From the NCBI GenBank assembly GCA_044224515.1, contig JBGAKH010000002.1, positions 162,151 through 226,150 on the forward strand: a stretch of 64,000 nt of DNA, written 5' to 3'. Shown piece after piece: positions 13,901 through 54,777 of this stretch; the first letter of the stretch is position 1, and each line of letters starts with the position of its first letter. The DNA is from Chlorobiota bacterium (GTDB lineage Bacteria > Bacteroidota > Ignavibacteria > Kapaibacteriales > NICIL-2). The notes under the pieces are model-generated. The model was not told where the DNA came from. It searched no databases and saw only the letters and a list, made by a program, of their open reading frames with translations. Position numbers and translations under genes: made by a program.

Positions 13901-14110
13901 TAATTGCCATCCTGCATAAACAATGGTGGGGCGGGCCCATCGTCACTACAAGGACTATCGGATCGATGATACAGGCAATAGTGATTGAGCTTGCGAGTTA
14001 GCACTGATCATCGTTCGAGGCTGCCACATCACATGCATTTGTATCACCATTCGATGTCAGCGTATTTGAGCATTTGTACTTTTGATTTACAGCACAAACC
14101 TCGTAGACCC

Positions 14111-15520
14111 ATGATGAAGTTCATGCTCAGCGCGTTATGCGCCTGTACATTGCTTTTTAGCATCGAAGCGTGTAAGTCCACCGCACCACGATCGGCTGAC
14201 GAAGAGATGGCAGCCACAAACCTCGAAAAGTCCGGTCCTAAGAAAACCTTGTACCTCACGGGAACCAAAGCCGCTCAAGAGCTGGCAAAAGGTGAGAACA
14301 TGCGTTACGATCTCTGGAAGATTGAATCCTCCGATTACCCCAAACAAATCAGGGCTTTTGCTCGAGTGTTCGATTCAAGCGGAAATTTCATAACACACCT
14401 GGCTCCCCCCGCGCATCCCACGCAAGAATACTGGCGACCACTTACAGAGAAATTGGGACGTCGCGTGGTGCCGGTCGAGAACTTCACTGTACGGGAATTC
14501 AGCGACGCCGATTCTATACCCTACGCTATTAGTCTGTTACTCGACTACAGCGGAAGCATGAAGTCTGTGATGGACGCGATCTATGAGGGTACCGACATGT
14601 TCGTGAATCTGAAGCAAGATCGCGATCGCATTTCCATAGCAAGCTTCAATAAAGATTATGAGCTGAAAGTTCCCTTTAGTTCGGACAAGAAACGAATCAC
14701 GAGTGACTTTCACGCCGTTCGTCAGCAAAGCTTCGGTATGTACTCCGCTTTCTACGACGGTTTGATGAAGAGTATGTCCGCCTTCGATTCTCTGCCACCC
14801 GAGATGCCGCGCATTCTTGTAGCCTTCGGTGACGGTGACGACAACTATTCAACTGCCAAGCCGCGCGACATTTTCCAAGCCGCGCAAGCGAAGAACGTTC
14901 ACATCTTTACGGTTGGCTTTGGCTATGCACATGATGACATTCTCAGCTACATCGCAGAGAATACCGGCGGTAAATCCTATCAAGTGTACTCCAAGCAAGA
15001 ACTGATTAATGTCTTCTTGGAGATCTACCGTTCACTGCGGAACTACTACTTGATCAGCTACAAGCCACCGGAGTTTGCCGGCATGCACTACGTGGCAATG
15101 CGTCTGAACTTACCCTCCGGTGATACGATGTCTGCCTATGGAAAGTATGACGAGAGCGACATCAAGTTCCCCTTCGAAAACGAAATGTTCTCAAAGCGTA
15201 TTCCCTTCGATTACAATCAAGCAACGCTGAAAGCGGAATCCCAAGTCATTATTGAAGGATTGGTCGATCAGCTCGAGCGTAATGAGAAAGTCTGGCTGGA
15301 AGTTCAGGGTCACACTGACAATATCGGCGGTGAGGAATTCAATCAACGCTTATCCGACGCTCGTGCCAAGGCTGTTGTCGATGCTCTGGTTACCCATGGC
15401 ATCGAGTCCAAACGACTGCGACCGCGCGGAATGGGAATGCTCCATCCGCTGGTGTCGAACGATAACGACTCACTGCGAGCCTTGAATCGTCGCACGGAAT
15501 TTCGCATCTTGAGAAAATAG
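14111..15520 (+). CDS. von Willebrand factor A domain + C-terminal OmpA-like domain fusion protein (start at Met MMKFMLSALCAC…)
   Basis: Signal peptide. vWA MIDAS motif DYSGSM (DxSxS). C-terminal OmpA peptidoglycan-binding motif …GHTDNIGGEEFNQRLSDARAKAV…NRRTEFRIL. Confidence 0.8.
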   Translation: MMKFMLSALCACTLLFSIEACKSTAPRSADEEMAATNLEKSGPKKTLYLTGTKAAQELAKGENMRYDLWKIESSDYPKQIRAFARVFDSSGNFITHLAPPAHPTQEYWRPLTEKLGRRVVPVENFTVREFSDADSIPYAISLLLDYSGSMKSVMDAIYEGTDMFVNLKQDRDRISIASFNKDYELKVPFSSDKKRITSDFHAVRQQSFGMYSAFYDGLMKSMSAFDSLPPEMPRILVAFGDGDDNYSTAKPRDIFQAAQAKNVHIFTVGFGYAHDDILSYIAENTGGKSYQVYSKQELINVFLEIYRSLRNYYLISYKPPEFAGMHYVAMRLNLPSGDTMSAYGKYDESDIKFPFENEMFSKRIPFDYNQATLKAESQVIIEGLVDQLERNEKVWLEVQGHTDNIGGEEFNQRLSDARAKAVVDALVTHGIESKRLRPRGMGMLHPLVSNDNDSLRALNRRTEFRILRK

Positions 15521-15580
15521 TGTCGGGAGTGTCTTTACCGTACTCTCCACACTGAGCACTCAATACCACACTGTTTCTGA

Positions 15581-15618
15581 GCAATGTGGGAGCAATGTGG
15601 GAGCAGCGTGGGAGTAGC
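15581..15618. repeat. short tandem repeat, about 3 copies of GCA(A/G)(T/C)GTGGGAG in the vWA-OmpA/lipoprotein intergenic region
   Basis: gcaatgtgggag gcaatgtgggag cagcgtgggag visible directly. Confidence 0.6.
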
Positions 15619-15706
15619 ATTGAGTTCAAAGAGATTGCATAAGCTCAGCGCCTCTACTAACTTTTTTGTATCTGTTGGGTCCTGTCGAAAAACAGGACGT
15701 ATACGC

Positions 15707-16138
15707 ATGATGAACTCACGCTTCGCATTCGGTACAGCGCTACTGTTAAGCTTTATTCTTGCATCCTGTGGAAGCAGCACCGATCTCAGCTATATCTATG
15801 ACGTGTCGGCTATGGTTGTTCCGGACACCATCTACTCCAATGCCAACCGAAAGCTTGAACTCGGCGTGAGCATTCTGGCATCTGAACGTGGCTGCTGGCA
15901 AACCGACCTCGTGGGCTATTCAAAGGACTCCAACCTTATTTCCGGCGGATACTACTACTCGATTCAGGCCAGCATGAAAAAGCCATCGAATGCAACGAAC
16001 TGTCAGAATGGCTACGACACCTTGCGAGGTAGGCTTACGATCACCTTTGATTCGGTGGGCACCTATCGACTGGATTTTCCTCAGGTCGATTCTCGCGGCA
16101 ACCTCATTACGAAGCACTACAACTATACCATTCGCTAA
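15707..16138 (+). CDS. hypothetical lipoprotein (start MMNSRFAFGTALLLSFILASCGSS…)
   Basis: Classical lipoprotein signal with LASC lipobox; no other motif. Confidence 0.5.
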   Translation: MMNSRFAFGTALLLSFILASCGSSTDLSYIYDVSAMVVPDTIYSNANRKLELGVSILASERGCWQTDLVGYSKDSNLISGGYYYSIQASMKKPSNATNCQNGYDTLRGRLTITFDSVGTYRLDFPQVDSRGNLITKHYNYTIR

Positions 16139-16934: not shown

Positions 16935-19900
16935 TTAGCGCACAATAACGAGTTTACGTGTCAGGGTCGTGCCCTTCGTACTGAGTTGTACGAAATAGGT
17001 GCCCGGAACAAGATCGGCGAATGAGCAATCGACATGATTCATACCTGCGCGGAAGCGCTTGTCTGTGCACACGGTTGAAACACGTTCACCGAGTGTATTG
17101 TGGATGCTCACGCTAACCGGAGCTTCCGATGCCAGATTGAAGCTGACACGACCTTCCATTTGTGCCGGATTAGGACTGAGCTGAAGTGTTTCGTTAAGGA
17201 ACTCATCAGCATCGTCGACCGAAGTTGCACCTTGAATTGAGAAGATAGCCGAACGACTATACTCAAGTTCCGGTTCACTCGGGTAGATGGCACGTAGAAC
17301 GGCGCTCTTGCTATTCACTCCCGGAACAGACCAAGTGCTGCTGGTCTTCAGTGCGCTCAATGAAGTAGCGGTGGTAGACCAAGTAGATCCACCGTCGAGC
17401 GACAACTGAAGATCAAAGTTTTGAACTTTGTTCACAGTGCGCCAACGAAGGTTTACGTTTTGTCCCTTGGTAAACACATCGTTGCTTGCAGGATTCAGCA
17501 AAGTCAACGATCCTGCCAAGACTTTGAATGGAGCGGTGCGACTAATTTCTTCACCACTCTCTTCATCGATCAAGCGAACAACTGCACTCTTGGTATTCAC
17601 CATCGGGACCTTCCAACTTGTTGAACCGTCCGTTGCGTTACGAACCGTTGTAATGCTCGTCCAGCCATCTGCACCGTTTGAAGAGAATTCGAAGTGTACG
17701 TTTGCCAGACCTTGGCTTTGCCAACGAATGATATCGCTACTTCCACCTGCGTAGATTGGATCTGCTGCTGCGGGACGTGTAATCGTTGAATTGATGTTAA
17801 CGAGCGCGAATTTCTTGGAGCGCGTCAATTCGGTTTTTGTTTCCGCATCAACCAAGCGTACAAAGCAGTCTGCTGCTGCAGTTGTTGGTGTGACAAATGA
17901 CGACTTCAACGTCTTCACGTTCACGGCACTTTGTGTTGTACGAACCCATGTACTGCCGTTGTCCGTCGAGTATTCTACATAGACGTCAGCGTCGCCGTTG
18001 GTTGTCCAGTTAACTGTAGTAGTACGACCTGTTGCCACTTTCTGAGACAAGGTCGGAGTGCTAATGCTAGCCGTGTACATGATCAAACCGTTGATGGTCG
18101 TGAAGGTTCCGTACTGGGTAAGTCCTTCACTTTGAGCACCGAGTACCGTGGTGCCCTTGTACCATGTAAAGCCAACGCTTGAAGCCGTATTCAACAATTG
18201 GAAGCGAAGTGTACCGACATAGGTCGCTGCACTCGGCACTGCCAATCCACCCTTACGTGAGAAAGCATCATAATCGACTTCGATTGTGCGAACATCAGCC
18301 AAAGCACGATCTGCGTTGTCCTTCGGAGCACTGTACATCACATTGTAACCCTTCGCTACATTGTTTGAGTACTGTACCTTTTCATTGCCTACTAATCCGA
18401 CATACTTCAACTTCTTTGGATTGAACTGGAACGCAAACGTTGCGTTACCGAGGTTGAAGGCAGTGCCGGTATTGCTGATGTATACCGGAAGGTCGACGAA
18501 GTTCTGATTGCGTTCCGGCTTTACTGACACGGTGTAGCTATACTTAGAGCCTAAGGTCTTGCTAACATGCTTCACCGGTAGGGCTGTATTGTGATCAACC
18601 GCGTCTTGACCGGCAGCATTCAGCGTCTGTGAAAGGAGCGGATCAAGTTCGCTCACAACGTTGAGCGGATTGCTCTTTGATGCTACCGGCATTTGTTCTT
18701 GAGAGCCACCGCCTGAAACAATACCCGGGAAGGATACTGCAGCGATGGAGGAGATCTTACCAAAGTTGCGGTCAACGATATCACGGTCAATCGCGCTAAC
18801 GATCTGATCACCTGTTACGTCGGAGCGAACCATAGCAGTTCCGGCATCCAAACGCACGCGTACACGGTCGGCAGCGTTGATTTGACCATCCTTTTCACAG
18901 TCACCTGCAACCATGGAAGCAATGTAGTTTGCTCCCACGCCGGTGATACCATCGCGGCCTTCGTTGAACACCAAACCGGTGTTCGAGAAGTACTGTGAGC
19001 TTGTTGTGCTCTTGCGACTTCCGTATGCAGAATAGCTTGCGTCATCGTCGGTACCGTTCCATGTTGAGAAGTCCCAACCGGATTCAATCGTCGTCGTGCT
19101 CACATCATCGCCTGAATAGTAGAAGCTGATTGGTGTGCGCGACATAATCGGCAAGTGATTCAATTGTTCAACCACTACCCAGTAGTTACCATCGGGTAAG
19201 TCAGTAAAGACAAAAGGAACTGTTGCAAACTTGGGTCCGTCGCCGGTATTTGTTCCCATGTTTGTGATAGCGCTTGCTGTAAAGGCATTGGGATCATACT
19301 GGAATTCGGATTCAGCTGTGTTGACTAATGCTCCCGGACTTCCGGAGTTGTCATTATAGAGCTTGATACGCAAGCCACCACCGGTATAGCTTGTTCCGAT
19401 GTTGTGCCATACGGATCCGGATCCGTCAAGTCCTTCGTGCAAGGCTTCTAGAAGAATGCGCAGCGTAAGGTTGCTGGGAGGAGTAATGGTAAACAGCGGT
19501 CCTTCAGAGCTGATCGACGTACTTGTACCGTTGATCGTATAGGTATTCCAAGCGCGCAAGCGAGCGTTGGTTAATGTAGCCGAAATTGTACCTTGATCGG
19601 TATAGGTTCCGTCGTCGTTCAAATCCGGATCTAGCAAAGTCATGTCGAGTTGGCAGCCAAATCTGCAGTTACCGGCTGATGATCCTGTGAAGTTCAAACC
19701 TGCGGGCAATGTCAATGAGTTTGTCTGACCGGCATGCCAATACGTGCTCCCTACAAATTGATAGGGTTGTACTACAACTCCACCGCCGCCACGAGTTGAA
19801 TACTCAACGGATGGACTTGCTCCACCGTTTGCACCGCCTGTGAAGCCGGATCCGCTGCCATTAAAGTCAAAGCCAACCCAACGTACATGAACATCCGTGG

Positions 19901-22900
19901 TTGAGTTACGAATGCGCTGATTGAAGGTGGGTTCAACGACTTTCAAATAGGGTTGTGTGGCCGTGTAACATATCGGTGTTCCCAAGATGATGGCGCGAAC
20001 GTTACCAACTTCAGAGACGACCGCACTTTGGTATCCGGTTGAGTTCATCGCTCCACCATTCAGGTCGAAAGCAACCTGAAGATTGGTAGAAGAACCACCG
20101 GTTAAGGTTGAACCCCGAACGCAAAGAGCACCTTGAATGTGTGAGGTCAATCCTGTCGGTTCCGGACCTGTTGTTGTAGCAGCACCCGGAGCACCATTCC
20201 AGAATCTGATATCACGAATGGAACCAACGAAGCTGCGAGCTGCAGAATCGCCGTTTGTGGGCTCATAGCCCAAGAAAGTCGGATAGGTATTTAGTGAGCT
20301 GACACTCAAGCTATCACCAAGTTGTGAGCTGATGCTGTCTGCACGCTGAGGATTACCGTCGACGTAGAAACGCACTTCGGATGCTCCGACACCATTGCCA
20401 AGATCAATCCAAGCAGCAACATGTGTCCATGCACTGTCGAGTGCAACACTTACCGGACGTGTAATCAACGATCCACCTGATGCGTCGCTAACTGCACGAC
20501 GTACTGTACCGGCGCGATCGGTAACACGGAGCTCAAGTTGTCCGGTAGGAAGCAAGCTCAATGAGAAGTGAGGCTTCTTCGATACGGTATCAAATTTTGA
20601 GATGATGGGGAATGAACCTTCACCTACTGTGGGGAAACGGTAGGGACGAATCCATGCTTCAACCATCGAAATCTGGCCAACCATGTTCATGGCTGTACCA
20701 TTCGGGATCATCAATTTGGTAGCAAGGGGACGTTCCATAGCGAAGTATGGGGCAACGACGAAGGAGTTCGACGAGAACAGAATTTCATTCTGGCTAGCGG
20801 AGTGTCCTTTGATACGCAACACGCATGACTTCGCATAGTCTGTCGAGACATCACGTAAGTTCTGTGCGGCACCACCATTGGTTACGGTACCTTCGTTGTT
20901 GTACGGAGTCCATGTAGCTTGACCTGCTTCAACATCGACCGAAGCAGATGCTCCGGGACCAAGGTCATAAGCGGCAGTAATACCACCCGATGTACGAGCA
21001 TAGGTCCAGGAAGTACCTCCATCTGTGCTGAATTCAATGTCAACATCAGCGCCTGATGCGGTGATATCGCCCACACCGTAGCCTACCCAACGTACGGTAA
21101 AGTTCTTTGCACTAAGATTGCAAACGCCGTCGCATCCCGTCGGTGCCGTTAAGCGCAAGTGTGCACGGTCCGGACGGAAACGGATGGATGGATTGTTTAC
21201 TACGGCATTTGAATAATACTGTACAGCTTGGTCGCCTAGCTGATAGGTAGCATTGCTCGCATCGTCGTTACGTACACCTTCCAGTGTCCAATAGGTCTCT
21301 AAACTGCGATTGATAAAGGTCGGGTCAGACGGCACGGAACCTACTGTTGAAGGTGTTGCCAAGCCGGCGATACGTGTGCGGATTTGTGATTGCGACAATT
21401 CTGTGCGCCAAACTTGTACACCTTTGATACCACCGTTCAAATAGCGTGAGGAATCCAACGTAATATTGGGGTTTACGCCAATCCAGATCGGCAGGTTTGT
21501 TGTCTGCATACGGATATTGGTCGCAGAGTCGTTGATGACTTCTTCTACCATCTCACCGTTTACATACAGACGCACGCGATTGTTTGCAACAGATGCAGCA
21601 AGGTGCATCCAGTTATCACCGTGAGCGGTGCTTAGGGGAGCTGAATCGCTTGCTGCGTTGAGTGCTTCAGGCGATACAATGTTTGCAATGTATCCGCCCA
21701 CACCACGACCGAGAATTTCTCGTGCACGGAAAGCCGGATACTTACCGTCTTTCAAATACAACATCCAAGCACCTTCTTCAGTTGCAACGGGTCCACCACT
21801 GGTGCAAATCACGCCAACTTCTGACCCGGTCGCTTTAATCTGGTTCAAATTGACCCAAGCGCCAACGGTGAGTTGTGTTGAGTTTGAAAATGATCCTGAT
21901 GTACGGAAATACTGTGATGAGCCGTTGAGCTGTGCGAAGAACAGACGACCCAAGACGAAGTCGGTATCACTCACGTCCAAACGCGTTGTGCGTGAACGTG
22001 TCGTCAACGAACCGGAAGCCGAAAGCTGTGTTATACGAATTCGTGCCGCTTCAGAGCGACCGGCAAATATTGTATTGCGTGTCCAAATCGTACGAACGAT
22101 TTCTCGACCATTCGCTGCGGGTAATGTTCCGCTTGTTGTTGTGACCGCGAGTGTGTCAATTTCATTGAGGTAGCTGATGCTGTCTTCTGCTGCACGTCCG
22201 AATTCGGAGAATGACGAACCACCGTTGAGCGAGTAGTCGAATGCATAGGCGACACCGGCTACGCCGTATCCGCCCGCTGCTACGAGACCGCTACGTTCAA
22301 AGTAAATGGGATATCCGGTTGGGACAGATTGATAGGTTTTGTCGCGATCTACCACTTCACTCGGACCGTTAGGATTGAGAACGGTTACGCCCACGATCGT
22401 GAAGTTGGCCGGATCGTTAAAGTTGACATTCGATTTAATGTTGTTGTCAGCAAAGTCAAACATTACCACGGTGCCAAGACCCAGACTGGAGCTCCAGGCG
22501 ATTTGAGTCAACGAGGTGTCCGTTAAACCGCTACTAATAATATCAAAGCGGAGCTTTCCAACGAAAGTTCCACGTCCGTTACTATCCGGCACAAGTCCGG
22601 CAATCGAACCAAACACTTTGCGCACTTCCAATGAGTAATACCCAACCCCATAGGATTGTGTCGCTAGTGACTGATATCCGTTGGTTCCATCGAAGGGAGA
22701 GCTAAGATGTTGAATGGGATTCGACACATCAACATCAAATGCCACGGTATCGGTGGTGGCTGGTGCCTGCGTTGCTGAGGGTACAAGCTGTTGCGAGTTG
22801 TACTGCAACACAAGCGATGACTCACCAAGCTTCGGTGCGGAAGCGCTCAACGACTTAATCCACACTTCAACTTCGAGCTGATCGCCGCGGCGACGTTGCT

Positions 22901-43509: not shown

Positions 43510-44219
43510 AAGTCCTGCAATTTACTGAATCATCCGCTCAATAACACCGCCAATGCTAGGCTGTTATTGAATCGTAATGAGATGATCCTTGCTTCTCCGG
43601 CATGAATTCAAGGGCTTCGCGAATGTAGTAATCGCAACGCTCTACACAACCGAAGTTTCGGAAGAAACACTCCGACCTTTTCTGGCTGTATCTACTTCTC
43701 AATTCTCGTGTTACTTAGTGAAAGCACGTACGACATGTCGTTGCCGGCAAACACCACGATTCCCTCTTGGTGTTCACCTACTATCCTTCAACAGGGCAAA
43801 ACTCTTTGAGATGCAGAGACTGAGAAGGAAAGCCTAGCAAATGCGATAGCGACTGTCAAGCAACACCGTAGCATTTTTGCAGTTGAAGACGAGAGCCACA
43901 CAGTGGTTATCACAGTAGTACGTACCGTACTCGATACGGTACTTGAGAACGTTATCATGTAAAGGGCGGTTCAGCGTGAATCGAGCTGAAACAGAACCGT
44001 GGGCTTTGTTGTCTTTGCCTTTTGGGCAGTCGGCAGTCGTCAACAAATATGTGTGCATTTTTTGTTTCACATTGACTTTTTACAGCAGACGCCCGGTCGA
44101 TCGAAAGCTAAAAAATGGTTATATAAGGCTTTTTTCGGCTAATTTGATGGCTCAACATTAAGTTTTTCACTCCTATATTGCCAACCATTCACTATTCACT
44201 AACCAGTCATTCACAGTTT

Positions 44220-45148: not shown

Positions 45149-45183
45149 AAAAGCCCAACGGCGTTGCCGTTGGGCTTTTTTAT
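45149..45183. terminator. bidirectional rho-independent terminator (GCCCAACGGC-gtt-GCCGTTGGGC + T-run) between convergent genes
   Basis: Perfect 10-bp stem; T6 downstream, A-rich upstream. Confidence 0.65.
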
Positions 45184-45244: not shown

Positions 45245-47464
45245 TTAGGGATTCTCAACGGGTGTCTCAACGACAATGTTCACCGTCCGGTTGTACATGC
45301 GACCTTCAGGGAAATTGTTGTCGTAAAGTTCTTGCTCTTTTCCATAACCTTTGGCGGTTGATGAAGGAAGATTGAGAGCCTTCGCTGTATAATCAGCTCG
45401 TTTGGTGCTTAGCATCATGTTGTACTCAGCGCTTCCACTTCGGTCGGTGTGGCCGGTGATCACGTAGGTGGACTTAGGACTCGAATGTTCCTTAATGTAT
45501 TTGATCAACGCTAAATGCGAGGCTGTGTGAGTGTAGCTACCGAATTCGTAGAGAATGAGCGAGTATTTGTCAACGTACTTGTCATTCACGCGCTCGCGAT
45601 CTTGTCTTGTCTGCATCTCTACCGGAAAGGTTTGCGTGATTCTGCGCAGCGAATCGAGTTTGTCGTGCACGTCAAAACGAATACGAATGTCATGCAAATC
45701 GCGAGGCCCGCGCGAGAGATCTTTATTGATATCCCATTGCAAGTGTTTATCAGGCATACTGCGACCGCTCATTGCAACGAATACACTGTCGTTCAAGACC
45801 GAGTGCACCGACCAATCCTTGACACCCACAGAACTCTTTACAGTTGGATAGAAGTGTAGTGAGCTCACGTGTTGTGCGCGTAAAACCGTATCTAGCAATA
45901 CGACGTTGCGAAGAATCTCAGGATCGTTGGAGCTGATTTCGACGCGACGGTTCTCGTCGATACCATCTTGACTCTTTGCACTGGAGGGCACAGCCGGAAG
46001 GTTTTGCGCTTTTACTTTCAAGCGTGCCGGATCAATTCCCCATACCTTTTCGAAATAGTCGCGCACGCGTTCTGCGCGTGCTTTCGACAATGCGGTGTTT
46101 GCCTTTTCCGGTCCCAGATCCTGATTACATCCTGTAAAAGTCAACACTGCTTTTGAGTTGTCGCGCATACGATTGCCTATGATATTCAGCACTTGTCTGT
46201 AGATTTCAAGTGCTGAGCTCTTTCGAAGCGCATTGACGTTGAATGATTCGGTTTGCTGAGCCGGAACTTGCACGTAGCGTTCCGGTATCACATCACTATT
46301 TTCATCAAAAAAGATATAGGGAAGCAGTGGTTGTATGGAATTGCCCACAACTTCTTCAATCTTCACCGTAACGATGTCTTTCTCCTCACCGTCTTGATCC
46401 GACGCTTTGAGCTTCATCGCTGTCTCAAGGCAATACGGTCGCTTTTCCGGGAGGGTCTTTACATAGCTCTGCCATACTTCGGTCAATAGGGTAAGCGTGT
46501 TGTATCCTGACTCAATTTCTTGTTCGTCGGTGGAATCATGCTTGAGTTCAATCTGCACCGCGCTAATGTCATAGGATTTCTCCACTGTTGTGTCGCGATG
46601 ATACACTGTATCGTAACGCATCAGTGGAGGAACAATCGGATTGTATCGCACAGACGCACCTACCTGCAGAGCGCTGATATGCCAGTCAATTTCCTTGCTT
46701 ACACTCGGTAAGAGTCGTGTGTAATTCAGCTCAGGCGAAAGGATCAATGTTTTCTTCTTGTTCAAGGGCACGTCAATACGCAACCCCACTCGAGCCATGA
46801 GATAAAGACTGATAGCCTGCGGTAGCTCTTGCGCGTTGAACTCGTTGCGTGTGCGCAAACCACTCGGAAAGAACACGCCCTCTTGATCCGCAGCCAGTTT
46901 CTCAACCTGATCGAATTGCGTTCGAAGACTACTGCAGATCGGCAATGAAGCACTTAGCCAAAAGCCACTGACCGGCTGGAAGAGTATGGCAGGCTCAAGG
47001 TTAAGATTTGAGATGTGCGCCGTGATCGAATGGTCTATGCGAGCCTGCTCCGTGCCGGTTGATGTGGTGACGGTCGTCAGCGAATCCTGTTCGCGCGCAG
47101 TGAGAATTCCTCCCAATGATTCAAAACCCAGACGAAGTTGTGCGGACCACAACGGACTAAGTACGTACTCACCAAAGATGGCTGCATGGATTCCACTTCC
47201 ACTGCCCCTTTCAAAATGTGGACAGCAGTTCGGGTAACCGGGTATCTTCTGAAAATTCGTCGTATGGTTCAATGACGAGTAGTCGACCGCCACTCCCACG
47301 CTATACGGGAAGTGCGGCTTCTCAGACTGTGAATACACTTGTACGCCGATAAGTGAATGCACAATGAAGAGTGAAACGATGCCGCTTAAGCGAAGTCCAT
47401 GCAATAGCCGCTTTGAGCTACTAGCAAGAATGTCTTTGATGCTTCGTGTCATGCTACTGCTCAT
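45245..47464 (-). CDS. large OmpA-family outer-membrane protein (739 aa): N-terminal beta-barrel-like region, two OmpA-like peptidoglycan-binding segments
   Basis: C-terminal …YVITGHTDRSGSAEYNMMLSTKRADYTAKAL… (OmpA_C motif) and internal …LTFTGCNQDLGPEKANTALSKARAERVRDYF…. ATGA start/stop overlap with upstream 2438-aa gene. Confidence 0.75.
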   Translation of the reverse strand: MSSSMTRSIKDILASSSKRLLHGLRLSGIVSLFIVHSLIGVQVYSQSEKPHFPYSVGVAVDYSSLNHTTNFQKIPGYPNCCPHFERGSGSGIHAAIFGEYVLSPLWSAQLRLGFESLGGILTAREQDSLTTVTTSTGTEQARIDHSITAHISNLNLEPAILFQPVSGFWLSASLPICSSLRTQFDQVEKLAADQEGVFFPSGLRTRNEFNAQELPQAISLYLMARVGLRIDVPLNKKKTLILSPELNYTRLLPSVSKEIDWHISALQVGASVRYNPIVPPLMRYDTVYHRDTTVEKSYDISAVQIELKHDSTDEQEIESGYNTLTLLTEVWQSYVKTLPEKRPYCLETAMKLKASDQDGEEKDIVTVKIEEVVGNSIQPLLPYIFFDENSDVIPERYVQVPAQQTESFNVNALRKSSALEIYRQVLNIIGNRMRDNSKAVLTFTGCNQDLGPEKANTALSKARAERVRDYFEKVWGIDPARLKVKAQNLPAVPSSAKSQDGIDENRRVEISSNDPEILRNVVLLDTVLRAQHVSSLHFYPTVKSSVGVKDWSVHSVLNDSVFVAMSGRSMPDKHLQWDINKDLSRGPRDLHDIRIRFDVHDKLDSLRRITQTFPVEMQTRQDRERVNDKYVDKYSLILYEFGSYTHTASHLALIKYIKEHSSPKSTYVITGHTDRSGSAEYNMMLSTKRADYTAKALNLPSSTAKGYGKEQELYDNNFPEGRMYNRTVNIVVETPVENP

Positions 47465-50400
47465 CGAACTATCTCCAGTCTCTGCGTCTTCATTTCAGTA
47501 GCCGTGTGGAGAATGACTTGATATACACCGGACGGTATGGTTGCACACGAAGCTTTGTACTGCCACTCGGCAGCAGGTGGCATACCTTCATATAGCACCT
47601 GCGCAACACGTCCCATCGCGTCAACAACTTCAATGCGCACTGCTGCTCGTTCAGGGGTGCTCAGGTCTACCGTAATGTTACCGTCAGCCGGATTCGGGTA
47701 CACAGAGCGTAGTGCAATAGCTTTAGCCCTATCAAATAGACGTGTTCCTCCATCTGTGCACTGACCGGAAATAGAAATTTTCGCATCCTTAGAACTCAGC
47801 GTTGCACTACCACCATTGGCAACAACGTTGCTGAAGTGCATTGCAGTCTGTACGTCATTTCCTAATGCTGCTTGCAATTCAAGTATTGCCAGAATTGAAT
47901 CTTGGGCATCGATAGCTTGGCTTTCGATCGACACGGTACGCGTTGGCCCGTCTTCAACACTGCTCAGTAGCGAACCGTGGCGCACACTACGTAACGACAG
48001 CAGTGTGGTATTCCACTGGAGTTGAGCGCTCATAGTAGATATACCTGCCAACTTCGCACCGCGCACATCATGTATGTACAGCGGATACTCGAAGACCTGG
48101 CCGATCTGCACCGTCGTATCCAAGGCATACACCGAAATTTCAGCCCGCAGGTTGGCAGAGAGTTCAACAGGGTTTTCGCGACCGCAATTGTCGCGGTAAC
48201 TCAGTGTCTCGCGAATCCATCCACTCGAGTCCGGTGCATCGAAGTGCATATAGGCCACTCCTTGGGTGTACAACGGAAGCGGATTCGGAGAGATGGAATC
48301 AATGGTGAAGTACTGTCCTCGAATCGGCGTCGGCACCACTTGCTCAAGCGAACCATCGTTCACAATAACCATTGTGGCACTGTACTGTTGACTCCGATTC
48401 ACAATGCCATAGAAGAAGGGATTATCCTTCCAAATCATGTCAACGGAATCTTTAAGTACCTTCAATGCAATGCTACGTTCAGCGTTTGTACTACTGTCCG
48501 TATTTGAAATCAAAACCAACTCCGCACTACGCATACCTGTGTAAGAATGCGAAAGGTGTCGCAGAAGAACCAAATGCTGTGCTGACGGCTCGAGTTCAAA
48601 GGAACTGTCGTTCACAATTGTAAACTCATTGGCTTGTGCACCCCGTAAGAACATGCGACTGACAAGCAGATTATCACCACCGGTATTTTTGACGACGACT
48701 GTGGTATCGAGAGATGGATAGCACTGCTCGTGAGCGGATAGTTCGGTGATTGACTGCAAGTGTGCCGGAACAATTTTCATAACCTCGATGACCACCGCCA
48801 ATCGATGTGCGGTTGCACAGCTGTCAAAAACTGTGATCGTATCGCGGTAGACTCCGGCGCTGTCTCCAGCAAAGCGCACATAGGCAATTGCGGAATCACC
48901 AACCGGCACAGGATTCTTCGACAAAGAGTCGAGCGAGAACTTATTGCGAGTTACCGGTGTTGCAATGCGCAAAGGCAAACTTCCGGTGTTGTAGACAACA
49001 ATCTGCTGCGTTGTCTTGCGCCATTCGCGAAGCGTCGGAAAACTCAGCACGGTTGAAGCAAAACGCATATCTGCTCGCTGAACTTCCACCGACAATGAGA
49101 GAACCAGAATCGAATCCTTTTCAGAGTTCGAGTAAATGGAAATTGTCGAAGGAATGCTTTGCGATGTTGCGCCACTACCGCTGGCATCGCAACGAATACG
49201 CAAAGTATCAACAGCACCGGGCAGAACGATTCTAGGAAGGGGTGTAATCAGACTCATGCTAAGCAGAGCCGATTGTGAGAATGCGACTGAGTCGATGCGC
49301 AACGTATCAAGTCCGCTGTTTCGTACGACGACTGAGGTGTCTCGTTTTGGCGTGCACGGGACAGCAAAGGTTTTTGGAGGAGTGAGACTAATTCGTGGAC
49401 GCAGACTTTGCACCTGAGCATGGATACGCAAAGGCTGCGCCTTTGCACACTGATCCTGCACGTTGAGTGTGTCGTAGACCGACGTTCCGCTCGGTGCTCC
49501 GGCAAAACGCAGAGTATAGATAGCAGAAGCTCCGGCGGGCGTTGGATTGGGAACGACTGAGACAAGGCTAAAGAGACCTCGCTGCTGCGGAACTGTCCAC
49601 TGTATCTCGGCGCTACCGGTATTAACAAGGGTGTCGCTAAGCGTCGCAGCCGTATTTGGAGCAATATCAATGAACTCCTGTGCGGCGGTATCAAATCGAA
49701 ACGCGGTATAATTCCAGTGAGCACTAAGAGGAATCAGTGTCTGACCATTTGTTGTGTTTTGAGCGTTCGATTCAATGACGAGCGAAGCACCGGTAGAGTT
49801 GAGTTCCTTTGGAGTATAGCGAATAACGATTGAGTCGAGAGCATCAGGATCTATCGTTGATGCCGGTTTGCGGACAATGCTGAATTGCTGCAAACTGTCG
49901 TTGATGATACGTAGGTCTTTTATCGACAAGGGCATCATGCCTACGTTAGTGATAATAATAGTCGTATCGAATTGCGATTGGCATGTGCGACTCTGTATAT
50001 CAAGATTCGACAAAATGTACACAGTAGCTTTAGGACTCTGTGTGAAGGCTCGAAGACGAGCCGAAACTTCTCCCCCGCACGTATCACGAACAGTGTACAG
50101 TGTGTCGTACACCATGGAGGTATCTCCGTTATTAAAGTTCACAAAGATCCGTGCGCTTTGTCCGGAAGGTATGGGGTTTGGCGCGATGGACATTATCGTG
50201 AACTTGCCCAGCTTCACAGGTGTCGGCAGGTACATACCCACACTTCCTCGATTGACAATGGTTAGGAAGCCATCAACCGATGTGAAGGGTCGCACATTAA
50301 GGAAATCCAGCGTTTGAGTCGGGAAGAACCAAATAACCGTGTCACGTTTTGCGGTCAAGCCCACGTCCAAAACACCCTTGGGAGTATTCTGTGCATTTGA

Positions 50401-53400
50401 GTAGACTCTGAGCGTTGCAGCCCGTGATCCGGAAAACTGCGGTAGATATTGGACGCGAATGTTTTTAAACGATGCTGCGGAAATGGTATCTGGAAACACA
50501 CTCACTACTTTAAAGTAAATGGAGTCTGAACCAATGATACGCACGCTATCAATCTGCATCACACCGGTTCCCGTATTGTTGATACGAATCACGGTGTCGA
50601 TGGGATTAAGAGCCGAACAAATGGGAGACAGCATCGCATAGTCTTTCTGTGCTGAAGCAATGCGTGGAATACCTATGCCCTCTCCCGCCAATAGGATGGT
50701 TGCGGGCGAGCCAAGGAAAGCATGGTAGAAAGCAAGCCGAGCACTGGTGAGTGCTATTCGGGTCGGGGCGAATCGCAGGGTGATGACCCGAGTCTCATTC
50801 GGCTGTAGAACAAAACTTCCGCCTCCGCTAACGATGGAGAATTGAACCGTGTCCGGACCCAGTATCCGTGTATTCGTTATGGTTAAGGCTGAAGATGTAA
50901 CGTTTTTGATAGTTGCCGTTACTGTGGTGTCTTTCTTTGTTGTGATTTCGACCTTTCCGAAATCAATCTGTTCAATAAGATTGTTCGTTGGTGGATTGAC
51001 CGACTCACCGATCAACACAAAACGCAGTGTATCACACAGGGTCACAACCGTCATCGTCACTTGTTTGATACCCACGACTTTGGTTCGTGGAATGAAGCCT
51101 AATTCATAGCTGAGCGATTGACCCGGATAGAGGTAAAGTCCCGTGTTCTTTTTTACAATCCTGAACTCATCTTTGTTATATCCTTCAATCGTTACCGAAT
51201 AGATGTAATCCCATGAAGAACCGATATTCATGATGATTTGATTGATCACGGAATCACGCGCTCCGTTGTTCAGCACTTTACCGAAGTTGATGGTATCTTT
51301 CTTAATCAGCTGCGAGGTGCCAATCACGAAGGGTGTCTTCGTGGTATCCATCTGAATTGGTGAGGCTAAGCAGTCCCACAACCAAGCATTACCGTCGTGA
51401 GAACAAATCAACGCGCGCGAGGAGTTTTCCGACAATGCGATTTGTGATACCGCGTACCCCTGGTGAGGGTTAACAGTGCGGATCACAGCTCTATCCGACG
51501 TCCGCCATAGACGTGCTTGATTGTTGGTGATCATTGGACCAACCACGTAACCTGCATTCGGACAAATCGCTTGCACGTTGTCGCTGATACTTCCCAGCAG
51601 ACTCAAAGTTGAGTCAAGAATGAAACTACGGTTTGTGGCTTGGTGGTAGATCGTGGTGTATTTCGCACCCGGCGCGTAACTGATTTTTGAGCACTCTCCA
51701 CCAAATCCATAAGTGTCCGTAAAGCGCATGGTTTCCGTCCAGCTTGCGGTGCTGATCGACACAACACTCATGTTCGTTGCCGATGCAAGTCCGGCAACCA
51801 GCAGGCTGTTGTCATTGTAACCGTAAACCAGATCACGCCCCGCGACAAAATTGTTGATTGTCAGCGTGCGAATCAGTGCTCCTGTCGCAGTCGCGAAAAC
51901 ACGAACGGTGTTATCAGCTACAACCGCCACGTATTGACTGTTCCCGGAGAATGCCGGACCGTAGCCGGCACTGCTAATGCGTGTGATTAACTGACCGCTA
52001 AGGACATTCCAAAGGGCCATTGAGTTGTCGGTCGACAAGGCAGCCAAGTAGATTCCGTTGGGACTTACCCGAAGCTGGTTGACTTTCGATGCCGTGGCAG
52101 CCAAGTCATAGAAGCACTTCAGCGTATCACGCGTTGCAACGTCATGCACGTAGACAGATCCGTCTTCGCCCATGGTTGCCACATTCTGGTCGTTGTTGAA
52201 GAAACAGCCCGATACCACGGCACCGCGCGCAGCATTACGCAACAGCAGTTGCTTTTCGTGCGTGCCACTCGAGGTCCACTGATTCACGCCACCAAATCCC
52301 GATGCCGTCAGAATGTGTGATCCATCGGAAGAAAACTGCGCAGACATACTGCGCCATGCGTGTTGATTCAATCGTCCACTGCCGTCAAAGCTGAATATCT
52401 GCGAAGCGGTCGACGGATCCCACACTACCACCGCTCCTCGGTAGGCATCAGGAACTCCCACCGCTGTTTCACCGCAGCTCAATACTCGGGTGCCACTTGC
52501 ATTGAAGCAAGCGTAGTAGTGTGCACCGATAGAGCCACTGAAATTCTTGAGTTCACTGGAGCTCGACGTGCTGAAGATTCTAGAGTAACCACCCAGGTAA
52601 CTCACAAGTACTTGATCTATTGAGGTCGGGTTGAAACTGACTGAGCTTACCGCTGTAATCTTGGAAGGATCGAGATTCGTTATGCGAGTGCCGCTGCCAA
52701 CGTACCAGACTACTGTTCGGCTTCCCACGTCTCCACTCGCCAATCGTGTTCCGTCTGCGCTGAAGGCAAGCGCGGACACCGGTGAGCTGTGATAAACTAA
52801 GGTACTGATGAGACTGCCATTGCTAAAGTCGTAGATGCGAATCGCATTATTCAATGAGTTTACGCCGACTGCAATACGTGAGCCTGCCGCATTCAAACTC
52901 ATGCACGTAAAGGTTGTCGTGAGGTCAACTATTGTTCGCACCAATGCATAGGTGCTGGCGTTCCAAATCTGGATGTACGCCCCGGGACTACCGTTTGAAA
53001 GCGTCAGGATGTAGCTGCCGTCCGGTGTCCATGCTACAGCACTCACCACGCGACCCGAACCCGGGTTCAAGGTTGCGAGAGTATCTCCGCTTTGCAAACT
53101 CAGTACGTATGCTTTTCGCGTTGACAGATAACTGTTGTCAGGATTCAGACATGCAACAGCTTGGTTGTTGTTTTGTGGATTGTAGACGACTTGCTTCATC
53201 TGTCCCGCGTGTCCCAGCTTCAGAAACTGTGTTCTGTCGTTCTGGAATTTCAGGTGTGAGATACGAATGCGATTGTTCGAACCCGTGCGGGGAGGAGTGC
53301 GAAACCACTGCTCAAAGTTTCCGCTGAAGTTGTCGACCAGCATTGTCCATGTTTTTGCATCGTCGTAGCTCCATTCCACACGAACAGAGTCGCCGGCAGC

Positions 53401-54777
53401 CACACCATCCCATCGGAAATAGGTGTAGTAGCACGAGTTGTAATTATCCGGCGCGCTAGGATACAACGCTACAAGAGTTTTTTGCGGTACAGTTCGTGAT
53501 TGATATCCGGCAGAGGCTCCAACCCATTGCCAGTAACACATGTTGCTCTGCAGATTGAGATTGCCAAACTGATAGGTCGTATCCGTTGCCGTATAGCGTA
53601 CCGTCAACACACGAGTAGTACCGGAGTCTATAACAAAAGGTGGAGAACTTCCACCCCAGTTAATCACTTGAAAGTGAGCATTGGTAAACGAACCGGCATC
53701 TATGGTGATTGCTGCGTTATAGGCATACAATGTCAGGGTTTTATCAACGTAGGTTCCAGGGGTGACAGCACCGTACGTGAGGGAATAAGGAGACTGCGAG
53801 ACGTAGGGAATCTTTGATTGCGGCATCAAGTAGTATTGTCCGACGGCCGGCATTCCCATGGACGGCACTGCAATACTGACATATCTCCAATTCACATAAC
53901 AATAGCGATCGGCCCACCAATGAAGAGTACAGGGAGGAATTCCTTGCGCATGCACATAGGCAGCACGAAGTGCTGCTTTAAGCATAACCTCTGTGCCCAT
54001 TGATTCACGATTTAAATCACCCTGTTCTATACCACCGGTTTGCACAGCCATGTCATAGAGTATCTGTGGTGCTTGAAGGTGATAGGAGATGGTGTAAATC
54101 GTGATGTTATAGAGTCGAGCGAAATTGACGATGGAATCAAGTTTGCCACCGCCATCACCATCGGTTACCAAAATCACAACGCGCTTATATTGTCCACGTG
54201 TTGCGACATTTAATGCTCCCGTCGGCGCAGCCAATAAAGCGTTATTATAATCCGTTGCGCCTTGAGGTTGTAGGGTTCCAACCGCTTGTAGTAGTGCAGA
54301 GCGACTCGTGGTAAAATCCTGATTAATGTAACTCAGGTGATCAAACGATGTCAGCGCAACTTCGTTTTGCGTTGTATCGATCATCGAAATAAGCTGCGAT
54401 GCTGCGTTTCGTACGGTGGACATGCGGCTCGGACTATCTTGACTCATGGAGCCCGAAACATCTAAGCACAAGACAACGGATAATTTTTGAGCAGTGGCGG
54501 AGGGAGGACAACTCACGGACGTGACTTGCATTGACGTTGAACCATTGTTCACGACAAAGTCACTCGTTTGAAAATTCCTAATTAATCTGTTTTGCGCATC
54601 AAAAGCATAAAAATCACAGCTGTGATCCTGAAATGCATTTACCGTGTAGGAAATTGGCGCAAGGCTCTGCGTCCACAAGTTCGTGGAACACATAAAGATA
54701 GCCAGGAGACCCAGAATTCGTCGCGACAGGGACATGTGACTCCGCAGATTAGGAGAAATTCCACACCGAATTGTCAT
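47461..54777 (-). CDS. giant T9SS-secreted protein (2438 aa): signal peptide, vWA domain, beta-propeller-like repeat region, nine or more Ig-like (HYDIN/choice-of-anchor-D-like) repeats, T9SS C-terminal domain
   Basis: vWA MIDAS DVSGSM (…VVLCLDVSGSMSQDS…VVILVTDGDGG…). Repeats with conserved [ILV]xNxG core (IVNRGSVG…, LVNTGSAE…, VYNTGSLP…, IVNDGSLE…). C-terminus …IPSGVYQVILHTATEMKTQRLEIVR. Alternative start at 54735 (MSLSRRILGLLAIF… signal peptide). Confidence 0.8.
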   Translation of the reverse strand: MTIRCGISPNLRSHMSLSRRILGLLAIFMCSTNLWTQSLAPISYTVNAFQDHSCDFYAFDAQNRLIRNFQTSDFVVNNGSTSMQVTSVSCPPSATAQKLSVVLCLDVSGSMSQDSPSRMSTVRNAASQLISMIDTTQNEVALTSFDHLSYINQDFTTSRSALLQAVGTLQPQGATDYNNALLAAPTGALNVATRGQYKRVVILVTDGDGGGKLDSIVNFARLYNITIYTISYHLQAPQILYDMAVQTGGIEQGDLNRESMGTEVMLKAALRAAYVHAQGIPPCTLHWWADRYCYVNWRYVSIAVPSMGMPAVGQYYLMPQSKIPYVSQSPYSLTYGAVTPGTYVDKTLTLYAYNAAITIDAGSFTNAHFQVINWGGSSPPFVIDSGTTRVLTVRYTATDTTYQFGNLNLQSNMCYWQWVGASAGYQSRTVPQKTLVALYPSAPDNYNSCYYTYFRWDGVAAGDSVRVEWSYDDAKTWTMLVDNFSGNFEQWFRTPPRTGSNNRIRISHLKFQNDRTQFLKLGHAGQMKQVVYNPQNNNQAVACLNPDNSYLSTRKAYVLSLQSGDTLATLNPGSGRVVSAVAWTPDGSYILTLSNGSPGAYIQIWNASTYALVRTIVDLTTTFTCMSLNAAGSRIAVGVNSLNNAIRIYDFSNGSLISTLVYHSSPVSALAFSADGTRLASGDVGSRTVVWYVGSGTRITNLDPSKITAVSSVSFNPTSIDQVLVSYLGGYSRIFSTSSSSELKNFSGSIGAHYYACFNASGTRVLSCGETAVGVPDAYRGAVVVWDPSTASQIFSFDGSGRLNQHAWRSMSAQFSSDGSHILTASGFGGVNQWTSSGTHEKQLLLRNAARGAVVSGCFFNNDQNVATMGEDGSVYVHDVATRDTLKCFYDLAATASKVNQLRVSPNGIYLAALSTDNSMALWNVLSGQLITRISSAGYGPAFSGNSQYVAVVADNTVRVFATATGALIRTLTINNFVAGRDLVYGYNDNSLLVAGLASATNMSVVSISTASWTETMRFTDTYGFGGECSKISYAPGAKYTTIYHQATNRSFILDSTLSLLGSISDNVQAICPNAGYVVGPMITNNQARLWRTSDRAVIRTVNPHQGYAVSQIALSENSSRALICSHDGNAWLWDCLASPIQMDTTKTPFVIGTSQLIKKDTINFGKVLNNGARDSVINQIIMNIGSSWDYIYSVTIEGYNKDEFRIVKKNTGLYLYPGQSLSYELGFIPRTKVVGIKQVTMTVVTLCDTLRFVLIGESVNPPTNNLIEQIDFGKVEITTKKDTTVTATIKNVTSSALTITNTRILGPDTVQFSIVSGGGSFVLQPNETRVITLRFAPTRIALTSARLAFYHAFLGSPATILLAGEGIGIPRIASAQKDYAMLSPICSALNPIDTVIRINNTGTGVMQIDSVRIIGSDSIYFKVVSVFPDTISAASFKNIRVQYLPQFSGSRAATLRVYSNAQNTPKGVLDVGLTAKRDTVIWFFPTQTLDFLNVRPFTSVDGFLTIVNRGSVGMYLPTPVKLGKFTIMSIAPNPIPSGQSARIFVNFNNGDTSMVYDTLYTVRDTCGGEVSARLRAFTQSPKATVYILSNLDIQSRTCQSQFDTTIIITNVGMMPLSIKDLRIINDSLQQFSIVRKPASTIDPDALDSIVIRYTPKELNSTGASLVIESNAQNTTNGQTLIPLSAHWNYTAFRFDTAAQEFIDIAPNTAATLSDTLVNTGSAEIQWTVPQQRGLFSLVSVVPNPTPAGASAIYTLRFAGAPSGTSVYDTLNVQDQCAKAQPLRIHAQVQSLRPRISLTPPKTFAVPCTPKRDTSVVVRNSGLDTLRIDSVAFSQSALLSMSLITPLPRIVLPGAVDTLRIRCDASGSGATSQSIPSTISIYSNSEKDSILVLSLSVEVQRADMRFASTVLSFPTLREWRKTTQQIVVYNTGSLPLRIATPVTRNKFSLDSLSKNPVPVGDSAIAYVRFAGDSAGVYRDTITVFDSCATAHRLAVVIEVMKIVPAHLQSITELSAHEQCYPSLDTTVVVKNTGGDNLLVSRMFLRGAQANEFTIVNDSSFELEPSAQHLVLLRHLSHSYTGMRSAELVLISNTDSSTNAERSIALKVLKDSVDMIWKDNPFFYGIVNRSQQYSATMVIVNDGSLEQVVPTPIRGQYFTIDSISPNPLPLYTQGVAYMHFDAPDSSGWIRETLSYRDNCGRENPVELSANLRAEISVYALDTTVQIGQVFEYPLYIHDVRGAKLAGISTMSAQLQWNTTLLSLRSVRHGSLLSSVEDGPTRTVSIESQAIDAQDSILAILELQAALGNDVQTAMHFSNVVANGGSATLSSKDAKISISGQCTDGGTRLFDRAKAIALRSVYPNPADGNITVDLSTPERAAVRIEVVDAMGRVAQVLYEGMPPAAEWQYKASCATIPSGVYQVILHTATEMKTQRLEIVR

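Follow-up and report, generated by a model that had tools for sequence, protein, structure and literature searches.

In the type B modules of type IX secretion systems (T9SS), the genes for a type B cargo, a PorP/SprF-like barrel and a PorE-like OmpA protein lie together, and their products have been proposed to form static, wall-anchored adhesin complexes, in which PorE bridges the barrel to the peptidoglycan (PMC9143113, PMC12618676). Cargoes whose sorting domain is of type A are reported to rely on PorV, the general shuttle, and to be either attached to anionic lipopolysaccharide (LPS) or released (PMC12618676). In Shewanella, SO2194 (PdsO, of the OmpA family), SO2195 (a sortase target of the inter-alpha-trypsin-inhibitor family) and SO2196 (a sortase) are encoded together (bioRxiv 10.1101/2023.05.05.539549), and operons combining FtsZ-like, von Willebrand factor A (vWA) and OmpA genes have been described by Makarova and Koonin (PMC2875224). 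The subject here is a window of 64,000 nucleotides from a Chlorobiota bacterium (contig JBGAKH010000002.1, 162,151 to 226,150, forward strand; all coordinates below are positions in this window), in which vWA and OmpA-like domains, with Pfam matches, are found at two loci. At one of these a single gene (14111..15520, + strand) encodes both domains on one lipoprotein, referred to below as the fused protein. At the other (45245..54777, - strand), the vWA domain lies on a giant protein (47461..54777) and the OmpA-like domains on a translationally coupled partner protein (45245..47464), much as an earlier note on this DNA had described it.

Is such a recurrence evidence that the two loci encode one and the same partnership, once as a fusion and once as a split pair? 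The earlier note had argued so by Rosetta-stone logic. Although combinations of vWA and OmpA domains do recur, as it had claimed, the fused protein does not come out as a one-chain version of the split pair. The reading that we consider probable, although well short of certain, is that the two loci are distinct envelope modules which draw on the same widespread kinds of domain, the fused protein serving as a periplasmic tether and the giant/partner pair as a secreted cargo with its own wall anchor. What is conserved at the split locus is the relation between a T9SS cargo and a cognate barrel/double-OmpA partner, with the vWA domain as one optional head of the cargo and not the cause of the pairing.

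The main evidence comes from the neighbourhoods of the partner's C-terminal module, which consists of two OmpA-like domains separated by an immunoglobulin-like (Ig-like) domain. A scan of one genome per species with a seven-sequence alignment of this module (A3) found 497 relatives, from which 80 loci were kept. Genes of at least 900 residues make up 40 of the 140 genes that flank the module gene but 18 of the 680 others in 74 loci (Fisher p 4e-20, an indicative value), and where at least 3 kb of flank was available on both sides a same-strand neighbour of this size is present in 29 of 50 loci. This large neighbour usually lies directly upstream of the module gene, with a gap of -4 to about +100 nucleotides. 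There are 41 distinct large neighbours, and a Pfam census of their last 130 residues places a Por_Secre_tail domain in 35 and a CHU_C domain in 2 of them. The corresponding census of the first 450 residues finds a vWA domain in only 10, the other heads including DUF7948, SBBP propellers, Ig_7, TPR, IgGFc-binding and laminin-G domains. In a neighbour-joining tree of the double-OmpA modules each clade keeps one class of cargo, namely a vWA protein of about 1190 residues encoded downstream, a vWA protein of about 2440 residues encoded upstream, non-vWA proteins of about 1700, 970 or 2100 residues encoded upstream, or no large neighbour at all. Several genomes hold at least two copies of the module. 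Because this synteny is conserved, the giant and its partner can be regarded as functionally linked; because 31 of the 41 partnered cargoes have no vWA domain, that domain is best viewed as an optional head.

Within the window, the giant and partner genes form a two-gene operon with translational coupling, since the ATG of the partner overlaps the TGA of the giant by four nucleotides (ATGA), a strong bidirectional terminator hairpin of 14 pairs (45149..45179) closes the operon after the partner gene, and the flanking genes, for a cytochrome c and MgsA, lie on the opposite strand. The giant has 2438 residues. By Pfam and NCBIfam its signal peptide and vWA head are accompanied by WD40 propellers, many repeats of the Ig-like/choice-of-anchor D/DUF1573 kind, a cohesin-like domain and a type A sorting domain. 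Its vWA domain (residues 101-243; 54049..54477) is matched by Pfam VWA_2 (E 2.3e-15) and VWA (E 5.5e-12), and in its metal-ion-dependent adhesion site (MIDAS) the DxSxS motif (D105, S107, S109) is the only part that was read from the sequence. The C-terminal sorting domain (residues 2359-2434; 47476..47703) scores 34.1 bits against PF18962 (cut-off 27) and 30.9 bits against TIGR04183 (cut-off 23), which, with the signal peptide, gives the giant the make-up of a T9SS type A cargo. Orthologues of 2419-2439 residues with the same arrangement are encoded at three related loci (L006, L010 and L011).

The partner, of 739 residues, combines a signal peptide, an outer-membrane beta-barrel (residues 54-274; 46643..47305; first model strands 54-71 and 84-101) and the double-OmpA module (45260..46318), made up of OmpA-like 1 (383-512), the Ig-like domain (521-618) and OmpA-like 2 (629-735); Pfam and NCBIfam place the two OmpA-like domains at about 416-512 and 637-732. 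The AlphaFold2 (AF2) model, with a predicted local distance difference test score (pLDDT) of 86.6, adds further beta structure at 281-378, between the barrel and OmpA-like 1. The best Foldseek match is the model of full-length E. coli OmpA, and the small barrels Ail, OmpA, OmpT, OpcA and NspA are matched as well. A barrel of PorP/SprF or PorV type was considered for the partner and found to be unsupported. Among 49 homologues both D674 and R689 of OmpA-like 2 are invariant, whereas in OmpA-like 1 the position of the aspartate is occupied by Q448 and only the arginine, R463, is invariant. OmpA-like 1 may thus be degenerate, and OmpA-like 2 would be the likelier wall binder of the two. In the wider family of 96 partner homologues the common part is the C-terminal run of OmpA-like 1, Ig-like domain and OmpA-like 2, the N-terminus being variable: most homologues have an outer-membrane barrel there, matched by PF13568 in several of them, some have PF20230, and in one family (P0194, P0197-P0199, P0201, P0203 and P0205) a signal peptide followed by a vWA domain. 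The double-OmpA modules of P0133 and P0199 are 34-42% identical to that of the partner. In P0199 (L009, 10001-12064) and P0197 the vWA domain takes the place of the barrel, and the gene stands alone in a 3.9-Mb contig amid unrelated genes.

A further feature that distinguishes partnered cargo is a cysteine motif, G-x-(F/L)-T-L-x-G-x-C-x-x-G-G-x-R-L, which is located just ahead of the sorting domain and which in the giant reads GQCTDGGTRL (residues 2338-2347; 47737..47766). Counted as distinct open reading frames (ORFs) over all loci, the motif occurs in 39 of the 46 sorting-domain genes that adjoin a partner gene and in 6 of the 56 that do not (Fisher p 9e-15, to be read as indicative), and three more of the adjoining cargoes carry a near variant. 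Of the six exceptions, those at L006 and L010 in fact abut a partner gene that was missed by the adjacency table, and the other four (L014, L023, L053 and L087) have a partner in the same locus, two or three genes away where both were called. The partner has a cysteine signature of its own, a vicinal pair within NCCPHF (residues 79-84; 47213..47230), placed in the loop that joins strands one and two of the barrel; standard barrel topology predicts this loop to be extracellular. Such a pair, in the setting LPG(V/I)P(N/S)CCP, is found in 59 of 74 distinct partners; its presence does not correlate with that of a cargo neighbour in the locus, and it occurs family-wide with or without a motif-bearing cargo nearby.

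Strained disulfides between neighbouring cysteines have recently been shown to be attacked by a thiol when SprF and PorG bind GldK (PMC12635249). This allows a tentative idea to be put forward, which we hold to be improbable, of a form of fixation for type A cargo that has not been described: the nearly invariant cysteine of the cargo motif would attack the vicinal disulfide of the partner to give an intermolecular disulfide, such that the adhesin would become covalently linked, through the barrel and the two OmpA-like domains, to the peptidoglycan. Were this the case, the disulfide tether would be the type A counterpart of the PorP/PorE anchor, employing chemistry similar to that of SprF/PorG with GldK, and genomes of Kapabacteria and Ignavibacteria would each hold several cognate pairs.

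Setting the chemistry aside, the proposed sequence of events at the split locus is that the giant, an adhesin-like protein, would be exported by the T9SS and its vWA head displayed outside the cell; the partner barrel would hold it at the surface, and the OmpA-like domains, positioned in the periplasm, would fix the complex to the wall. The most likely role of the partner would thus be that of a static anchor, tying its cognate cargo across the outer membrane to the wall. Adjacency of cargo and partner genes, the restriction of cargo types to clades and the specificity of the motif for partnered cargo are seen directly in the loci, and physical binding and anchoring of the giant by the partner are inferred from them. 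As with the fused protein, the localisations given for the giant and the partner are predictions throughout.

From its ATG at 14111 the fused gene encodes 469 residues, as many as are found in an identical public protein (P0001) and in all close homologues; the 511 residues given by the earlier note correspond to the maximal ORF from a TTG at 13985, but its account of a single protein with a vWA domain bearing DYSGSM (residues 145-150) and a C-terminal OmpA domain was accurate. The N-terminus, MMKFMLSALCACTLLFSIEAC (14111..14173), is a signal peptide that closes with the cysteine of a lipobox. This residue, Cys21, is the predicted lipidation site, and its conservation among the 26 homologues of an alignment (A1) is 90% or more. 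In the AF2 model (pLDDT 86; predicted template modelling score, pTM, 0.78) a disordered linker (19-43) is followed by a beta-sandwich (51-130; 14261..14500) that packs against the vWA domain (139-310; 14525..15040), then by strands at 312-347 and the OmpA-like peptidoglycan-binding domain (359-468; 15185..15514). Pfam places VWA at 140-297 (E 1.4e-10), with VWA_2 matching the domain too, and OmpA at 366-460 (E 2.4e-17), the former and the latter both above cut-off. The top Foldseek matches are ITIH1 and the archaeal ArnB, each a vWA domain with a beta-sandwich, followed by OmpA C-domains, and a search of the PDB with the A1 profile matches the C-domains of OprF, OmpA, Pal, YiaD, YfiB, PorE and MotB.

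The metal site of the fused protein, D145-x-S147-x-S149 (14543..14557), is an intact MIDAS, as both DxSxS and the downstream metal ligands are conserved: D145, S147, S149 and D241 are invariant in A1, and S212 and D216 are at least 90% conserved. In the OmpA-like domain D403 and R418 are invariant, and we take these to be the positions of the diaminopimelate-binding pair, comparable to D271/R286 of A. baumannii OmpA. The fused protein is thus predicted to be a vWA protein of the envelope that is tethered to peptidoglycan and belongs to a family not yet characterised, and to that extent the prediction of the earlier note has held up.

This architecture is common, albeit uncharacterised, rather than rare. 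Among 5.8 billion proteins searched there are 712 matches, the best 120 of which are nearly all full-length at 43-76% identity, come from metagenome-assembled Kapabacteria, Ignavibacteria, Chlorobiota and Bacteroidota, and are named in the databases only as "OmpA family protein" or "VWA domain-containing protein". When 1.84 billion cluster representatives (clusters at 50% identity) were searched with a profile, at least 1645 scored E<=1e-30. The majority of the best 150 align with the profile from about 40 to 469 unbroken, often after an extra N-terminal region; it is from these numbers, and from the matching in one stretch, that the architecture is judged to be common. A metagenome scan with A1 gave mainly generic OmpA-domain matches and only about nine full-length relatives. 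In the distant members P0300 and P0327 the extra N-terminal region is a WD40 propeller, which produces a PorE-like layout of propeller, interaction module and OmpA domain.

In the window the neighbours of the fused gene are nuoAB, csp, gatC and yjbR. The order gatC, fused gene, small lipoprotein gene, yjbR is kept in the closest relative (76% identity). The relative at 56% identity keeps gatC alone, with a 390-residue protein of unknown function encoded downstream of the fused gene, and at 51% identity the fused gene lies beside an ECF (extracytoplasmic function) sigma factor and a cation-efflux gene. Seven further full-length loci have other neighbours again (MlaD, O-methyltransferase and amine oxidase; glycerate kinase; pyruvate kinase; and others), and an all-against-all comparison of the fused loci finds synteny blocks that are lineage-specific only. 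A conserved operon partner was accordingly ruled out across these 10 loci, the neighbours being lineage-specific housekeeping genes, and so the suggestion that a search for vWA-OmpA fusions would uncover informative neighbours led to a widespread family with no conserved one.

The gene that follows, for a small lipoprotein of 143 residues with the lipobox LASC (15707..16138, + strand, from the reading of ORFs), is indeed where the earlier note had placed it. It has no match in Pfam or NCBIfam, and among 5.8 billion proteins only two members are found, itself and a 60% identical protein in the closest relative; in the nine other loci it is not beside the fused gene. The hope that it might be conserved next to the fusion was therefore not borne out and it was rejected as a conserved partner. 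Given the lineage-specific synteny and the single homologue, the fused gene stands alone and the small lipoprotein gene is a lineage-restricted neighbour. The 186-nucleotide gap between the two contains a short tandem repeat, GAGCAATGTGG GAGCAATGTGG GAGCAGCGTGG, at about 15576-15612 (+ strand); a promoter and terminator scan of this gap found nothing above shuffled expectation.

How, then, might the fused protein work? Following Sec export it would be lipidated at Cys21, and the lipid would anchor it in the outer membrane's inner leaflet. A flexible linker of about 25 residues would connect this anchor with the beta-sandwich/vWA core, a rigid unit whose metal-ion site is intact, and the C-terminal OmpA-like domain would bind peptidoglycan non-covalently. 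The protein would consequently sit in the periplasm, bridging the outer membrane and the wall, where the MIDAS face would hold an acidic residue of a protein ligand in a metal-dependent manner. In this way it would act as a Pal/PorE-style tether with a vWA adaptor. While the architecture, the conservation of the key residues and the missing operon partners are direct observations, the topology, the ligand binding and the bridging or adaptor role are what we infer from them.

The reading of two separate modules has to be weighed against that of a single partnership, in which the fused protein would be the single-chain form of the giant/partner pair and the vWA and OmpA domains would interact directly within one wall-anchored complex. 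Both domain types are present at both loci, and TIGR03436 (VWFA-related) matches part of both vWA regions, although in neither case is its cut-off of 81.25 bits reached (63.8 bits over residues 131-322 of the fused protein, a resemblance only, and 46.3 bits on the giant). Several observations weigh against separate modules: genes with a vWA domain are over-represented next to the double-OmpA module (10 of the 140 genes that flank it as opposed to 4 of 680 others, p 8.5e-6, a rough value from related loci); P0197 and P0199 fuse a vWA domain to a partner-type double-OmpA module (34% over 376 residues), and this vWA domain is nearer to that of the fused protein (22.5% over 213 residues, E 2e-12) than to that of the giant. 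A looser theme of this sort is also suggested by the Shewanella gene pair of sortase target and PdsO, together with the sub-threshold PdsO match of the partner. There may, then, be a deeper vWA-OmpA link of some kind. To the same side of the balance belong the approximately 40% of partner homologues with adequate flanks that have no large neighbour, the calling of genes in related loci by a simple longest-ORF procedure of our own with our own hidden Markov models (HMMs), and the shared descent of the related loci, by which the Fisher p-values overstate independence. Likewise, a dedicated anchor is unexpected for a type A cargo because such cargoes are reported to use PorV and to be attached to LPS or released. 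Nonetheless, a direct partnership common to both loci seems quite unlikely. The modules of the split form would be in different compartments, as the sorting domain predicts export of the giant to the surface whereas OmpA-like domains act on periplasmic peptidoglycan. The pairing of cargo and partner is, moreover, independent of the vWA domain, the identities between the loci are generic (20% between the vWA domains of the fused protein and the giant, with a pairwise E of 1e-3, and 30% over 82 residues between the OmpA domains), and in none of the 10 loci examined is a partner-type or giant gene found beside a member of the fused family. It is on these grounds, differing compartments, vWA-independent pairing, low identity and no shared neighbourhood, that the equivalence of fused and split forms falls. 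More generally, the repeated occurrence of two common envelope domains in one window counts as Rosetta-stone evidence only where compartment, phylogeny and neighbourhood point the same way, which in this case they do not.

Within the reading of separate modules, each module in turn has competing interpretations. The partner could be a cargo-specific T9SS shuttle of the PorP/SprF or PorV kind, which collects its cargo at the translocon rather than anchoring it statically. One-to-one gene pairing with translational coupling, and a cargo-specific motif beside the sorting domain, would suit a shuttle, and published type B cargoes do require a cognate shuttle from the neighbouring gene (PMC12618676). 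Even so, we judge this to be unlikely, given that the partner has no PorP_SprF Pfam match, folds like small barrels of the OmpA/Ail/OpcA type with only poor Foldseek matches to FadL-type 14-stranded barrels, and possesses two peptidoglycan-binding domains that argue for immobility, while the sorting domain of its cargo is of type A and so of the kind reported to use PorV. For the fused protein, it is very unlikely that it is a surface-exposed vWA adhesin resembling CglB of Myxococcus: lipoproteins of this bacterial group can be exposed on the surface, but an OmpA-like domain with invariant D403/R418 requires access to peptidoglycan and hence the periplasm, and there is no gliding or adhesin gene context. 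The precedent for such an adhesin is that CglB is itself an outer-membrane lipoprotein with a vWA domain (PMC9946355). Membership of a Bat-like, MoxR-dependent aerotolerance system can be given hardly any credence. The vWA structure of BatB (3ibs) is among the fold matches of the fused protein, at rank 32. Bat proteins, however, are anchored by membrane helices and encoded with MoxR, DUF58 and TPR genes, whereas the fused protein has a lipoprotein signal and no MoxR, DUF58 or TPR neighbours in the window or in the 10 homologous loci, in keeping with the view of the earlier note that it is reminiscent of Bat proteins without being one. What the two do have in common is an envelope vWA domain with a MIDAS.

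A number of other features of the window and its relatives deserve mention. Convergent to the fused locus lies a second T9SS cargo gene (16935-23015, - strand) for a protein of 2026 residues with laminin-G-like domains; this protein lacks the C..GG..RL motif, and its gene, which has no OmpA-type partner gene beside it, is kept in the closest relative (L001). At L057 (contig JBGAVD010000003.1, 634407-655540) that relative has a further paralogue of the double-OmpA gene, its second, accompanied by a cargo gene of about 979 residues and located approximately 20 kb from the fused vWA-OmpA gene of the same genome. The c-type cytochrome gene that is convergent with the partner gene (44178-45122, + strand) encodes, at the C-terminus, a sub-threshold sorting domain (Por_Secre_tail, E 4.6e-4; 20.8 bits where the cut-off is 27); our own sorting-domain HMM matches the same cytochrome and its L010 orthologue, and this cytochrome may be secreted. 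Elsewhere, a single ORF at 23419-25311 (+ strand) joins an Nramp metal transporter to a C-terminal universal stress protein domain, and at 57111-60833 (+ strand) a 1240-residue protein has four NPCBM domains ahead of an alpha-galactosidase catalytic domain.

How do the two modules compare with the systems that are known? The giant/partner pair appears to resemble the type B cargo/PorP/PorE module without being a member of it. As with PG1035-PorP-PorE of P. gingivalis and Fjoh_3952-3951-3950 of F. johnsoniae, a large adhesin-like cargo adjoins a barrel and an OmpA-type binder, and there are several paralogous pairs per genome. Unlike those modules, the sorting domain is here of type A (35 of the 41 partnered cargoes, with CHU_C in 2), the barrel and two OmpA-like domains are on one polypeptide, and the barrel is OmpA/Ail-like rather than PorP/SprF-like, with no TPR/propeller body of the PorE kind. 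OmpA/OprF-type proteins share with the partner an N-terminal barrel and a periplasmic OmpA-like domain, from which the partner differs by a second OmpA-like domain, the intervening Ig-like domain, the vicinal cysteine pair and its cargo-specific pairing. In the Shewanella sortase system a sorted protein of the inter-alpha-trypsin-inhibitor type, a type that we take to belong to the vWA family, is likewise found beside an OmpA-family protein, and the best fold match of the fused protein is ITIH1. OmpA-like 1 of the partner scores 53.1 bits against TIGR03789 (PdsO), below the cut-off of 152.2. The lineage is another one, however, no sortase is encoded beside the operon, whose flanks are the cytochrome c and MgsA genes, and the giant ends in a T9SS domain where sortase targets carry their signal (no search for LPXTG was made). 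The Makarova-Koonin system does not apply, in that neither locus is flanked by a gene for an FtsZ-like protein, a GTPase or a kinase. In the literature, as far as our limited coverage extends, nothing was found on T9SS and OmpA in Ignavibacteria or on TIGR03436, nor any description of the pair.

The fused protein is closest to Pal and PorE, with which it shares a lipoprotein signal, periplasmic interaction domains and an OmpA-like domain with the D/R pair, and from which it differs in that its interaction module is a beta-sandwich/vWA core. Against Pal (TIGR02802) it has the signal with the lipidated cysteine and scores 61.4 bits, through the OmpA domain only, where the cut-off is 125.35; against PorE (NF052230) it scores 75.3 bits of the 600 required, in the OmpA region only, and has no combination of TPR, propeller and carboxypeptidase regulatory domain (CRD). 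The neighbours of the fused gene, both here and at the 10 other loci, include neither a tol-pal cluster nor porP. The family of wall-tethered periplasmic vWA proteins to which it belongs is very large and, with the sortase-linked vWA/PdsO system, hints at an unexplored role for vWA domains at the Gram-negative wall. For the pair, the comparison bears upon how type A cargoes are held: these are thought to share one route of shuttling and attachment, to which cargo-specific, wall-anchored partners would add a second. Such a second route, if true, would explain how giant adhesins are retained outside the well-studied Bacteroidia, by an anchor that is analogous to PorP/PorE and yet built differently.

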